A stretch of 41,894 nt of DNA from Candidatus Fervidifonticultor sextus (lineage in GTDB: Bacteria; Sysuimicrobiota; Sysuimicrobiia; Sysuimicrobiales; Humicultoraceae): the NCBI GenBank assembly GCA_031459875.1, contig JAVKHQ010000023.1, positions 1 to 41,894 on the forward strand. The letters run 5' to 3'. The notes beneath the pieces were generated by a model. That model did not search any database. It saw nothing but the letters and a program-made list of their open reading frames with translations, and was not told the DNA's origin. Below are positions 31,193 to 39,436 of this stretch, piece after piece (positions within the stretch are counted from its first letter, which is position 1; every line of letters starts with the position of its first letter). The translations under genes and the position numbers were made by a program.

Positions 31193-31510
31193 TCAACCCG
31201 CATCGGCCCGCCGGAGGCCAACCAGCTCGCCGCCGCTCACCTCATGCGCGCGCAGGGTCAGGTCCGGCGCCATCACGGCGCGGACGTGGAGCAGCGCGAA
31301 GCACCGACTGCCCATGACGTCCTTGTCGAGGATCCGCACGTCCTGGCCATCCTCCAGGTCCTGCCGCAGTTCATAGTGGGGGTCGACGCGCACCGTGATG
31401 ACCTCGCCGCACGTGCCGCAGCGTACGTCCAGCAGGAAGGCGGTCGGACGTCCCGCGTCTCCTCGCCCGGGCGGGGTCAGCCAGCGTCTCAACCACTTCA
31501 CAGGATGCAC
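31193..31510 (-). CDS. Hypothetical protein with CxxC
   Basis: 105 aa, VRCGTCGEVITVRVD...RCF. Confidence 0.6.
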   Translation of the reverse strand: MHPVKWLRRWLTPPGRGDAGRPTAFLLDVRCGTCGEVITVRVDPHYELRQDLEDGQDVRILDKDVMGSRCFALLHVRAVMAPDLTLRAHEVSGGELVGLRRADAG

Positions 31511-31550
31511 GTTACTACGGAGCAGTCGCGTATACCTGCGTATGCCTCTG

Positions 31551-31579
31551 TTGACGCCGCCGCCGGAACGTGCTATCGT
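31551..31579 (+). promoter_or_regulatory. Sigma70 promoter
   Basis: TTGACG-N17-TATCGT with an extended -10 TGn. Confidence 0.75.
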
Positions 31580-31593
31580 CGGCCGGGAGTGGA

Positions 31594-31629
31594 CTCCTTT
31601 AAGAGCCGTCCGGCGAGACGGACAAGGAG
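31594..31629 (+). promoter_or_regulatory. PyrR-binding RNA element
   Basis: CTCCTT/AAGGAG lower stem, UUUAA motif, CCGTC/GACGG upper stem, and hexaloop CGGCGA matching the CNGNGA PyrR consensus. Confidence 0.85.
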
Positions 31630-31635
31630 GGCATC

Positions 31636-31755
31636 ATGACCTACCTGTGCAGGCCTGCCCCGCCCGTGCGGCGGGCGTTTTCGTTTGTCCCCGCGTCGTC
31701 TCCCCGTCCCCCGGTGGAGCCGAGCCGCTGTCTGGACTGCGGCGGAGCGAGGTGA
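31636..31755 (+). CDS. Putative 39-aa leader peptide (regulatory uORF)
   Basis: AAGGAGG-N5-ATG, translating MTYLCRPAPPVRRAFSFVPASSPRPPVEPSRCLDCGGAR*. The stop lies within the GAGGTGA SD of the next gene. Confidence 0.55.
   Translation: MTYLCRPAPPVRRAFSFVPASSPRPPVEPSRCLDCGGAR
31661..31686 (+). terminator. Intrinsic terminator (attenuator)
   Basis: CGCCCG-TGCGG-CGGGCG hairpin followed by TTTTCGTTT. Confidence 0.7.
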
Positions 31756-31760
31756 ACCCC

Positions 31761-32957
31761 ATGGATCCGGTCGCCGACGGCGCGGGAGGCAGCCTGTGGG
31801 ACCGGGCCCTCGAACAGGCGGTCCGGGACTTCGGAGGGTGGCTGAACGCCCACACGCACCTCGATCGCGCCAACACCTTTGCGCCCGAGTACCTCCACCA
31901 CGCCAACATCGACCCGATCGGCGCGGCCGGCCTTTCCCTGCCGGTGAAGCAGATCCTGGTCGGTGAACTGCACAAGGGCCTGGCCTATCGCCCCGACAAT
32001 CTCTACTGGCGCATGCGTGCTGAGTTGGAGCGCATGGCGGCCATGGGAACCCGCGAGGTGGTCTCGTTCATCGACGCGACGCCGGACATCGGCCTCGTCG
32101 CCATCGAGCAGGCCGCCCGGCTTCGGGACGAGTTCCGCGGACGGCTCGCCCTCAAGATCGCGGTCTCGCCGATCTTCGGCTTCAAGAACCCCCGTGCGAA
32201 CCCCGACCGGTGGGACACCTACCGGCAGGCGGCCGAGATCGCCGACGTGCTCGGCGGGCTCCCCTCGAAAGACCGCGCCGAGGGCCGGGTGGGATTCGAC
32301 GGGCATGTCCGCCTCCTCCTCGAACTCGGCAAGGCGCTGCGCAAGCCGGTGCACCTGCAGGTGGACCAGGACAACGATCCCCGCGAAGAGGAAACCGAAC
32401 AGCTGGTGCAGGCGGTCCGGTGGCTGGGGGCGCCGGAGGTGCCGGGCGCAGACGGCCCCACGGTGTGGGCGGTCCACGCCATCTCGCCGTCGTGCTACGA
32501 TGAAGAGCGCTTCCAGCGCCTGGTCGACAACCTGATCCGGTACAACGTCGGGGTGATCTGCTGCCCGACAGCCGCGCTCTCGATGTTCCAGCAGCGGCCG
32601 ATCCTGGCGCCGATTCACAACTCCATCGCCCGCCTGCTGGAGATGATGGCCGCGGGCGTGGCGGTCCGGATCGGCACGGACAACATCTGCGATATCTTCA
32701 TCCCCAATGGGGACGGCAGCGTCCGCAGCGAGGTCTGGGTGGCGGCGACCGCCCTGCGCTTCTACCACACGACGATCTGGGCAAAAGTCGGCGCCGGCCT
32801 GCCTCTCAACGAGGGTGACAAGGAGTGGATCCGTCAGGCCCTGCAGCGGGCCCGGGACACCTGGGCTGCGGTGCACGCCGACCTGGCCCGAACCGGGCCC
32901 GACGGGGCCCGGCCGGGTCAGCCCGAGGACGCGGACCGCCGCCTGACGCTCCGGTAG
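31761..32957 (+). CDS. Cytosine-deaminase-like metal-dependent amidohydrolase
   Basis: NAHTHLDRA, VHAIS, GTDNICD. ATG 31761 follows GAGGTGA; the gene lies downstream of a PyrR element. Confidence 0.8.
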   Translation: MDPVADGAGGSLWDRALEQAVRDFGGWLNAHTHLDRANTFAPEYLHHANIDPIGAAGLSLPVKQILVGELHKGLAYRPDNLYWRMRAELERMAAMGTREVVSFIDATPDIGLVAIEQAARLRDEFRGRLALKIAVSPIFGFKNPRANPDRWDTYRQAAEIADVLGGLPSKDRAEGRVGFDGHVRLLLELGKALRKPVHLQVDQDNDPREEETEQLVQAVRWLGAPEVPGADGPTVWAVHAISPSCYDEERFQRLVDNLIRYNVGVICCPTAALSMFQQRPILAPIHNSIARLLEMMAAGVAVRIGTDNICDIFIPNGDGSVRSEVWVAATALRFYHTTIWAKVGAGLPLNEGDKEWIRQALQRARDTWAAVHADLARTGPDGARPGQPEDADRRLTLR

Positions 32958-33094
32958 CGGCACCTCGTTCCTGCGCGCGTTCCCTCGGCCGATGGCCGCA
33001 CCGCCGTCCGGGCTGGGGGGAGCCGGGTGCTGCGATGGCGAATCCTCCGCCACGATCGCGGATCTTGCTGCCGCAGCACTCCGGAGGACGCATC

Positions 33095-33574
33095 ATGCGG
33101 AGCCGACTGGACTTCGGCAGGGCCATCGAGACCCTGCGGGCATCGAAGGGCCTCTCCCGCGAAGAGGCTGCCGCCCTCGCCGGGATCTCCCACTCGTACC
33201 TGTCGGAGATCGAGCGCGGCCTCAAGCGTCCCTCCGCCGACATTGTCGCGAAGATCGCCCGCGCCTTCGGCATGAGGGGAAGTGCCTTCCTGCAGTATGT
33301 GGAGGAGCTGTCGGCGCCGCTGCCAGGGGAGCCGGCCCCCTCGCGCGCGGTGCAACTCCCCCTCAAACGCGGGAGAGCGCTGCCGCTCTTCTCGGCTGAT
33401 TCGGAGACCGCAGGCTCGCCGCGGGCCAGGCGCAGGCAACGGGGCCTTCCCGCAACGCCGGAGGCGGGCGACCTGGCCCTCAGCGAACTGCTGGTGATCG
33501 GCCGCCGGCTGCGGCCCGAGGACCGGCGGGCACTGCTGCAATTGGCCCGCCACCTGCTGCACCGAGCGTCCTAG
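33095..33574 (+). CDS. XRE/Cro-CI family HTH transcriptional regulator
   Basis: LRASKGLSREEAAALAGISHSYLSEIERGLKRPS. SD GGAGG. Confidence 0.88.
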   Translation: MRSRLDFGRAIETLRASKGLSREEAAALAGISHSYLSEIERGLKRPSADIVAKIARAFGMRGSAFLQYVEELSAPLPGEPAPSRAVQLPLKRGRALPLFSADSETAGSPRARRRQRGLPATPEAGDLALSELLVIGRRLRPEDRRALLQLARHLLHRAS

Positions 33575-37770: not shown

Positions 37771-38918
37771 GTGTCCAGTTTCGGAAGGGTGTGCACACAT
37801 CAGGCATGAGCGAGGTGGTCACGGTCTTCCCTCCCGGCGACGCCCCAGAACATCTCGGCGGGTGGCCGACCGTGGGTGCGGTAGCCCAGGTGCGGCCGGC
37901 GGTAGTTGTAGAACTCGAGGTACCGATCCAGGGCCGCCTGCAGGAACCGCACGTGGGTGAAGAACCGACGGCGGAACTCCACCCGCCAGAGCTCGCTGAG
38001 AACAGTGCCCTGCAGGCGCTCCACGAACCCGTTGGTCCAGGCGTGCCGCGGTCGGGTGCGGGTGTGGCGGATTCCCCAGGCGGCGCACGCCTGATCGAAC
38101 GCTCCGCGGTACTCGCTGCCCTGGTCGGTCAGCACCCGGCGGATCGGCCAGCCTGCCGCCCGGTAGGCCGGCACCACCCGGGTGGTGAGGAAGCGGGCCG
38201 CCGCCTCGGCCGAAAACTCTGTGCCGACTTCGGCAATGGCGTACGAACAGGCCGCGTCGCAGGCGGTGTACTGCCAGACCTTGCCCACGCCCTTGAGTTT
38301 GCCGATGTAGAACGTGTCCAGGCAGACCAGCTCGCCCGGCTGCTCGGCGGCCAGGTGGGGTGGCCGCCGGCGCTGGACCCGCGCCAGGGCTCGGCGCGTC
38401 CGCTCGGTCAACAGCCCCGCGCTCTGGGCGCTGTGGACTTCCAACACCGCCAGCCGGTCTGCAGGCCCATCCGGCGCAGGAACCGATAGATCGTGACTGG
38501 GGCCAAGCGCCGGCTGCCGTGCTCGGGCCGGGCCAGCTGCGCGGCCAACCGGGCCGGCCCCCAGGTCGGCCACGCCAGGGCCAGGGCCAGGATCGCCCGT
38601 TCGGTTTCGGCCCCCAGGCCCGAGGGCCGACCGCGTCCAGGTCCGCGCCGCCGGGGGTAGACCCCGTCGGGTCCATAGGCCAGGTAGCGCCGTCGCCAGC
38701 GATAGAAGAGCGTCCGGGAGATCCCAAACTCCCGGCAGGCCTGGCTGACGTTCCCCAAGGCCTGCGCCCGGGCTATCACCCGCAGGCGGAAGGCGTGTAC
38801 ACTGGCTTCGAGGGTCATAGGCGGTCCTCCCCGTCTCCCCATGCAGGGGTGGTGTCCAACGGGAAGGATACGTCATATGACCCTCCTTTGGTGTCAACAC
38901 TAAACCGAAACAGTTCAC
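37771..38918 (-). mobile_element. IS481-family insertion sequence
   Basis: Imperfect 28-bp terminal IRs (GTGTCCAGTTTCGGAAGGGTGTGCACAC vs GTGAACTGTTTCGGTTTAGTGTTGACAC, 19/28). Flanking direct repeat ACTAGC at 37765-37770 and 38919-38924. Confidence 0.88.
37800..38818 (-). pseudogene. IS481-family transposase, frameshifted near 38455
   Basis: The HTH N-terminus (NVSQACREFGISRTLFYRW) is in one frame. The rve DDE core (PGELVCLDTF, VLTDQGSEY, TNGFVERL, YNYRRPH) is in another frame. Confidence 0.85.
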
Positions 38919-38950
38919 ACTAGCGGCGGGTGACGGCGGTCCGGTCTCTC

Positions 38951-39436
38951 TCAAGGAGCTCGATCCGCATGGATCGGGGTGCGCATAGCGACCTCCTGCC
39001 ATTCCTCAAGGCGGGGCCGGAGGATCAGCAGGCCGATCAGGCTCAGCGCGCACAGCCAGGCGAAGGCCGCGAGGTGACCGGTCAAGAGGTAGAGCACGAC
39101 GGCCAGCGGTAACGGCGTCACAGCCAGGAGCACCGCGAGAAGCAATGGTCCCACGAGACGGCCGACGGCTTCTTCCACAGAGGAGGCCGGCGTTCGGGGC
39201 GCCTGGGCCATGGCCCGGGATTTGAACCACCGGCCCAGGGCCAGATCCGACAGACTGATGAGGTAGAAGAGCGCGATGAACAGCGTGCCTGATTCCAGCC
39301 GCCCTCCCAGGGGTCGCACCAGCCGAGGTAAGATCCACAGGACTGTCGCGGCACTCACCACCTCCGCGACCCAGATCCGCTGGATCGTGGCCAGGCCCTG
39401 TTCGATGGCCGCGGCGGAAGAGAACCGCGCTCGCAT
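38951..39436 (-). CDS. Hypothetical membrane protein
   Basis: 161 aa with about four hydrophobic segments; co-oriented with the aminotransferase. Confidence 0.6.
   Translation of the reverse strand: MRARFSSAAAIEQGLATIQRIWVAEVVSAATVLWILPRLVRPLGGRLESGTLFIALFYLISLSDLALGRWFKSRAMAQAPRTPASSVEEAVGRLVGPLLLAVLLAVTPLPLAVVLYLLTGHLAAFAWLCALSLIGLLILRPRLEEWQEVAMRTPIHADRAP

Follow-up and report, generated by a model that had tools for sequence, protein, structure and literature searches.

A probable PyrR-type, ribosome-dependent attenuator in the leader of a cytosine-deaminase-like gene of Candidatus Sysuimicrobiota

The subject of this study is the leader of a gene for an amidohydrolase distantly related to cytosine deaminase (hereafter the deaminase-like gene) in Candidatus Fervidifonticultor sextus. 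The gene lies on a contig of 41,894 nucleotides (nt), JAVKHQ010000023.1 of assembly GCA_031459875.1, which was analysed over its whole length and is referred to as the window. Our analysis indicates that the leader is probably a transcription attenuator of the PyrR type which depends on the ribosome and, in addition, couples its translation to that of the deaminase-like gene. A promoter is followed by a hairpin of the PyrR-binding type, by a short open reading frame (ORF) whose Shine-Dalgarno (SD) sequence is part of that hairpin, by a terminator-like hairpin inside this leader ORF and by a leader stop codon next to the start of the enzyme gene. A genome scan with the regulated gene yielded 38 loci. 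In 19 of them (L001-L016, L018, L019 and L021) a leader with this hairpin lies upstream of the orthologous gene, and together with the window they form the set of 20 leaders examined here. The closest locus, with 97% identity, comes from Candidatus Fervidifonticultor octavus of the phylum Candidatus Sysuimicrobiota, and the close homologues of the enzyme are from metagenome-assembled genomes labelled Armatimonadota. The elements of the leader, their order and their conservation, the constraint on the reading frame and the absence of a conserved RNA antiterminator were all established on these sequences.

The comparison carries the argument. The G+C content of the window is 70%, and statistics on the single sequence are weak for this reason: relative to shuffled sequences, the fold has a z of -2.2 for the PyrR-type hairpin, -0.36 for the terminator and +0.47 for the whole leader. 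Conservation in the 19 related loci indicates that the layout is beyond chance. A preliminary description of the window, made from its letters without database searches, had named a promoter TTGACG-N17-TATCGT, a PyrR hairpin with UUUAA and a CNGNGA hexaloop whose 3' lower strand is an SD sequence, a 39-codon ORF starting at ATG 31636, a terminator inside this ORF, and an ORF stop within the SD sequence of the deaminase-like gene. All of these parts were recovered at the same places (Table 1), and the relatives show that they are kept.

Table 1. Coordinates of the leader elements and of the regulated gene in the window
Feature	Position	Strand	Basis or remark
-35 hexamer TTGACG	31551..31556	+	TTGAC invariant in 17/17 aligned leaders
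Extended -10 element TG-C-TATCGT	31571..31579	+	17 nt after the -35 hexamer
PyrR-type binding hairpin	31594..31629	+	Sole Rfam match, RF00515; covariance model R1
SD sequence AAGGAGG of the leader ORF	31624..31630	+	3' strand of the lower stem of the hairpin
Leader ORF, 39 codons, ATG to TGA (31753-31755)	31636..31755	+	ORF list; frame and stop position conserved
Terminator-like hairpin with U-rich tail UUUUCGUUUG	31659..31687	+	CCCGCC/GGCGGG, or register 31661-31677; inside the leader ORF
SD region of the deaminase-like gene GGAGCGAGGUGA	31744..31755	+	Leader stop TGA is the last triplet
Regulated gene, 398-amino-acid (aa) amidohydrolase distantly related to cytosine deaminase	31761..32957	+	NCBIfam, structures

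The promoter was compared in the 17 leaders that have a separate short ORF as in the window (alignment A2). Within the extended -10 element of the window, the TG extension lies at 31571-31572 and the hexamer TATCGT at 31574-31579; all 17 have the TG, the TA and the final T unchanged. Between 31200 and 33200 it is the only promoter-like site, against 0.1 expected from shuffles, and transcription would start near 31586. The alignment as a whole has the appearance of a set of fixed elements joined by loose spacers: little or no variation is seen in the TTGAC of the -35 hexamer, the key bases of the -10 element, the hairpin and the terminator stem, and the stretches between them vary.

The PyrR-type hairpin has two tiers. 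Its lower stem pairs CUCCUU with AAGGAG and is followed by the internal loop UUUAAGAG, which starts with UUUAA at 31598-31602, and by the upper stem CCGUC/GACGG, which carries the hexaloop CGGCGA (31611-31616). A sensitive Rfam scan of the 401 nt from 31450 to 31850 returned one match, the PyrR family RF00515, with 34.6 bits and an E value of 0.0035. The alignment is full-length (31592-31684) and covers both the hairpin and the terminator, so that the terminator of the window coincides with the terminator half of the Rfam model. PyrR was also the only family listed when eight of the loci were scanned, being found in six of them with 34.5-43.3 bits.

Conservation of the hairpin in the 20 leaders is close to complete. 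The C, G, G and A of the CNGNGA hexaloop are invariant in all of them and the two N positions vary, a pattern identical to that of the family consensus printed by cmscan; UUUAA is invariant as well. In the SD strand, CAAGG and the last two G are present in every leader, and the A between them in 19 of the 20 (L019 has a G). The lower stem is invariant apart from one position and is therefore uninformative on pairing, but such invariance is the look that would be expected of an SD-containing strand recognised by a protein. Evidence for pairing comes from elsewhere. One pair of the upper stem covaries: ten leaders have U-A there, eight C-G and two U.G. For the hairpin and the terminator together, 90.9% of cells are paired, compared with 42-60% for slid partners; four pairs show double changes, and the covariation score was reached in none of 500 shuffles. 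We built a covariance model (R1) from the 20 hairpins and scanned the window and the 38 loci with it (439,941 nt). Exactly one site per locus was found, namely the 20 leaders, at 61-72 bits. There were no further copies in these sequences; the next best hit, of 16 bits, at 38872-38962 on the minus strand of the window, was taken as noise. By the same model the hairpin is absent from the more distant orthologues (L017, L020 and L022-L038).

The short ORF behind the hairpin bears the marks of a translated sequence. A start codon, ATG or GTG, follows CAAGGAGG at 5 nt in 17 leaders and at 6 nt in 2, that is, in 19 of the 20. The distance from this start to the ATG of the deaminase-like gene takes 10 different lengths between 92 and 140 nt, and it is 2 modulo 3 in 16 of the 17 leaders with a separate ORF. 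Summed over the leaders, the leader frame has no stop codon in 645 codons, whereas the other two frames have 18 and 10 in 628 codons each and 12.5 would be expected from the composition. The spacer between terminator and gene has a median pairwise identity of only 0.525 outside the closest pairs; since it is so poorly conserved, the frame must have been kept by selection and not by low divergence. The end of the ORF is constrained too. The leader stop lies no more than 10 nt past the ATG of the deaminase-like gene and no more than 11 nt ahead of it in 16 of 17 leaders; the other two frames end equally near in 2 of 34 cases. The junction takes several forms, TGAnnATG in seven leaders and an ATGA overlap in three among them. 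In the window the ATG at 31761 comes 5 nt after the leader stop, which is the last triplet of an SD-like GAGGUGA, and a GGAG/GAGG-type motif with a TGA beside the ATG recurs in the relatives. Taken with L005 and L011, two loci with an in-frame fusion of leader ORF and enzyme (see below), the frame constraint and the lack of stops lead us to infer that the leader ORF is translated. The peptides themselves, of 29-50 codons, are similar only where the terminator stem dictates it (Pro-Pro..Arg-Arg..Phe). We considered whether the Pro-Pro codons on the 5' arm of the terminator are a required stall and rejected this, as L002, L005 and L011 read the stem in other frames.

The terminator-like hairpin is the second conserved structure. 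Its stem in the window lies at 31659-31677, where two overlapping registers were found against 0.4 expected. Such a hairpin starts 10-32 nt after the start codon in 19 of the 20 leaders, and its outer stem pairs covary (A-U 4, G-C 5). A conserved RNA antiterminator was not found. The segment that would have to form one, from the hairpin loop to the terminator loop, has a consensus fold of only -1.63 kcal/mol, and its four near-invariant pairs, between GG.GG of the SD sequence and CC.CC of the terminator arm, show no compensatory change. The preliminary description had pointed to a 5-bp candidate antiterminator, GGGCA/UGCCC; it is present in the window, and no conservation of it was seen in A2.

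These observations suggest the following mechanism. The promoter, which is of the sigma-70 type, would start a leader of about 175 nt. Some 8 nt into it, the two-tier hairpin with its PyrR-loop signature would appear, with the SD sequence of the leader ORF as its 3' strand. When pyrimidine nucleotides are high, PyrR would hold this hairpin shut and the leader ORF would get no ribosome. The GC-rich hairpin and the U run, 23-51 nt past the leader start codon, would then form behind the polymerase, and transcription would stop. With no nucleotide co-repressor bound to PyrR, the lower stem, which has 6 bp and is weak, would open and let a ribosome start at ATG 31636. After a few codons this ribosome would cover the 5' arm of the terminator, and the polymerase would read on. 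The same ribosome would terminate at the TGA at 31753, within the SD sequence of the deaminase-like gene and 5 nt before its ATG, which would favour re-initiation on the enzyme ORF. In this scheme the binding of PyrR, the nucleotide signal, the stop of transcription at the hairpin and the antiterminating role of the ribosome are presumed. The preliminary description had suggested in outline that PyrR blocks initiation on the leader ORF so that the terminator forms, and that ribosomes otherwise read through it and are handed to the start of the deaminase-like gene. Comparative evidence (the frame constraint, the placement of the stop, the terminator inside the leader ORF and the lack of a conserved antiterminator) supports this suggestion.

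The relatives show three layouts. In 17 of the 20, the leader ORF is separate, encloses the terminator and shows stop-start coupling. In L005 (296-400) and L011 (1238-1342), the start codon behind the hairpin opens the ORF of the enzyme itself, so that the leader ORF is fused to it in frame; the N-terminus is about 8 residues longer, and codons 9-14 of the enzyme ORF (24-41 nt inside it) hold the stem and U run of the terminator. Because of this fusion the terminator stretch is necessarily translated in these two loci. In L008 (2913-3057) the hairpin stands directly before the normal start of the deaminase-like gene, with no terminator-like hairpin within 75 nt, a layout of SD occlusion alone. 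A neighbour-joining tree of the enzymes, built without support values, puts both the fused and the terminator-free variants in among window-type leaders, a weak indication that they arose by deletion.

Several observations weigh against the attenuator proposed here. The first concern PyrR itself. The gathering score of RF00515, 54 bits, was reached neither in the window nor in any of the loci scanned, a scan of the whole window at gathering thresholds gave no match, and L004 and L007 had no Rfam match at E <= 1. By score, formal membership in the PyrR family therefore fails, and the case is carried by the comparison with relatives. No pyrR gene was found among the 38 ORFs of the window with Pfam or among 53 neighbour ORFs of the loci with NCBIfam. 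Others concern the leader ORF. L015 breaks the frame rule, with a distance of 135 nt. L014 (5797-5965) has GGG at the position of the start codon; it keeps the hairpin, the terminator, the open frame and the terminal TGA, and the GGG could be a natural loss of the start codon, a near-cognate start or an assembly error. The terminator also has its weaknesses. Taken alone, that of the window is no more stable than shuffles of GC-rich sequence, as its z shows, and in 8 of the 19 terminators the U run is interrupted, with 4-5 U in 9 nt. A ribosome would have little time to load and arrive at the stem before the polymerase has passed, and no U-rich pause tract was seen between the start codon and the stem (31636-31658); the tail of the terminator is the sole U-rich stretch. 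In about eight loci the 3' strand of the hairpin is GGCGG, which is complementary to CCGCC in the terminator 5' arm, and a small RNA antiterminator could operate there. Finally, the SD sequence of the deaminase-like gene is not specially masked by the C-rich spacer: its mean unpaired probability is 0.26 in the 17 leaders, against 0.24 in shuffles. We therefore dropped forced coupling through a masked SD sequence, for which there is no signal, and coupling is suggested only by the geometry of stop and start.

Some of these points would be accounted for by a purely translational cascade, in which PyrR occludes the leader SD sequence, the enzyme is made only by re-initiation, and the GC-rich hairpin is non-terminating in vivo or constitutive. 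The adjoining or overlapping stop and start in 16 of 17 leaders would fit such a cascade, as would L008, where SD occlusion would act with no terminator, and the imperfect U runs of several relatives together with a terminator of ordinary stability. We regard it as unlikely, if the best of the alternatives. All but one of the 20 leaders retain the stem and the U run, and the outer pairs of the stem covary; L005 and L011 retain both although they lie within the enzyme ORF and re-initiation is unneeded there. The deaminase-like gene, moreover, has an SD sequence of its own which is not specially sequestered, so that it would escape control by coupling alone.

A different possibility is that the hairpin is not a PyrR site, and that it is bound by another protein or a small molecule or is a constitutive structure sequestering the SD sequence. 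The sub-threshold Rfam score, the failure to find pyrR in the window or the neighbour ORFs, and a regulated gene that lies outside pyrimidine (pyr) biosynthesis all speak for this. We nevertheless consider it improbable: PyrR is the sole Rfam family matched, the loop follows the family consensus in its invariant and variable positions, and the target enzyme is related to cytosine deaminase. The gene itself is present in the phylum, species level aside, as Dataset S11 of PMC11962464 lists K02825 (pyrR) among the functions acquired on the branch to the aquatic lineage of Sysuimicrobiota, which includes hot-spring members.

Anti-antitermination of the Bacillus type appears to us about as improbable, or slightly more so. 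Here the PyrR hairpin would compete with an antiterminator made of its own 3' half and the terminator 5' arm, and the leader ORF would be incidental. The Rfam PyrR model does align across hairpin and terminator, GG.GG of the SD sequence can pair with CC.CC of the terminator arm, and the loci with GGCGG can pair it with the terminator CCGCC. The upper stem of the hairpin and the stem of the terminator use the same CCGCC/GGCGG words in L006, L009, L010, L012, L013, L019 and others, and for this reason the two cross-pair in the minimum-energy folds of L012 and L019. By eye, however, 9 of the 17 leaders in A2, that of the window included, read GACGG at this position, which leaves an A.C mismatch. 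The weakness of the consensus alternative and its lack of covariation, the GACGG strand and the lack of visible conservation of GGGCA/UGCCC make such a switch unlikely. It would also leave unexplained the frame constraint, the absence of stops, the fixed spacing between SD sequence and start codon and the placement of the stop. That the short ORF encodes a functional small protein, with the RNA structures secondary to it, is hardly credible: 16 of 17 leaders do keep the frame open and in register, but the peptides resemble each other only along the terminator stem, vary from 29 to 50 codons in length and have no Pfam or NCBIfam match.

The minimum-energy fold of the window's leader contains a further pairing (31586-31597, plus strand), between a GGAG at the 5' end (31586-31589) and CUCC of the hairpin lower stem, which would free the SD sequence. 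We dropped it as a part of the mechanism, as by eye the motif recurs in A2 only in L016. The frame of the deaminase-like gene is open upstream across the leader (31377-31760, plus strand), giving an ORF of 520 aa at 31395-32957; an automatic gene call could therefore start too early and take in the promoter and the hairpin. About 40 nt separate the -35 hexamer from the end of a divergent 105-aa ORF upstream of it on the minus strand (31193-31510), which has a CxxC motif and no family match.

The best NCBIfam match of the 398-aa product is PRK06886, a family named 'hypothetical protein' (5e-58, below cutoff), and it has no match in Pfam. Models of cytosine deaminase match it more weakly (1.7e-13), and its nearest solved structures are cytosine deaminases (4r7w, 1.4e-10). 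A cytosine-deaminase-like enzyme is a plausible target in pyrimidine salvage.

Directly downstream of the deaminase-like gene, the window has a gene for an HTH_3 (XRE-type) regulator (32825-33574, plus strand). Same-strand ORFs of 154-187 aa are placed likewise in L001, L002, L012, L013 and L021, with a family match, HipB-like, only in L013. In L015 (7272-12899) and L019 (5186-10745), the genes that come after the deaminase-like gene on its strand are those of a sugar-type ABC transporter (a binding protein and two permeases) and a PfkB/ribokinase-like kinase, a cluster that might be an operon for nucleoside uptake and salvage. Upstream of it lies ornithine carbamoyltransferase in both loci, and in L019 carbamate kinase as well. 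Transposases occur nearby: one with an integrase core (rve) in the window (37800-39002, minus strand) and one of the IS481 family in L001 (3710-4723, minus strand).

PyrR acts in Bacillus through an RNA antiterminator and in mycobacteria through SD occlusion. The leader described here shares with the Bacillus subtilis pyr attenuators the UUUAA internal loop, the CNGNGA hexaloop and a downstream intrinsic terminator, and RF00515 aligns to it in full length. It differs in its lower scores (34.6-43.3 bits against the gathering score), in having no conserved antiterminator, in the use of the 3' strand as SD sequence and in the ORF that spans the terminator. For pyrR of Mycobacterium smegmatis, Fields and Switzer are said to have described, in 2007, translational repression with the SD sequence within the PyrR hairpin. 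By that account the hairpins are alike in containing an SD sequence, so that binding should block initiation, and L008 has exactly that layout on the deaminase-like gene. In the window, by contrast, the occluded SD sequence is that of the leader ORF and not of the regulated gene, and a terminator follows. The Escherichia coli pyrBI operon is controlled by leader-peptide attenuation with polymerase pausing sensitive to uridine triphosphate (UTP) in a U-rich stretch, and no RNA-binding protein is involved. That system has in common with ours a leader ORF running through an intrinsic terminator whose hairpin is prevented by a closely following ribosome. The differences are that no U-rich pause tract was seen here and that a hairpin of the protein-binding type would gate initiation.

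The closest precedent is the pyr operon of Thermus ZO5. Van de Casteele and co-workers reportedly proposed for it, in the Journal of Bacteriology in 1997, a form of PyrR attenuation that dispenses with an antiterminator and relies on a translating ribosome to keep the terminator hairpin from forming. The preliminary description, too, had mentioned a leader-peptide variant proposed for Thermus. If that 1997 proposal is correctly described here, the two systems agree in a PyrR-type site that overlaps the ribosome-binding site of a leader ORF, in a terminator within this ORF and in the lack of a conserved antiterminator. They differ in the target, which is a cytosine-deaminase-like gene here and pyrR-pyrB-pyrC there, and in the phylum, here Sysuimicrobiota. 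Our leaders also depart from it in the leader stop, which 16 of 17 have at the gene start, and in the orthologous loci with a fused or a terminator-free layout. The mechanism we propose thus seems to match the Thermus proposal, so that the idea would not be new in principle; it would be of a little-documented kind. In the open full-text literature we found no paper describing a PyrR-gated leader peptide.

To our knowledge, the mode in which the ribosome serves as antiterminator under PyrR rests on that one sequence-based proposal for Thermus. The 20 leaders add evolutionary evidence for it, in the form of a constrained frame, avoidance of stops, a fixed spacing between SD sequence and start codon, and no conserved RNA antiterminator. 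They would extend the mode outside Deinococcota, and to a presumed salvage gene instead of a pyr operon. The fused and terminator-free relatives are natural mutants in which it could be tested. A wider reading is tentative, and we lean slightly against it: a single orthologous locus may preserve a series of three PyrR mechanisms, providing the first comparative demonstration of a PyrR-gated ribosome as antiterminator, with single deletions turning the attenuator into simple translational switches, and it may place PRK06886-like amidohydrolases in pyrimidine salvage. The logic of the switch, if true, is that a pyrimidine gene is turned off when pyrimidines are plentiful. For an amidohydrolase family labelled no more than hypothetical by NCBI, the leader is a hint of a role in pyrimidine salvage.

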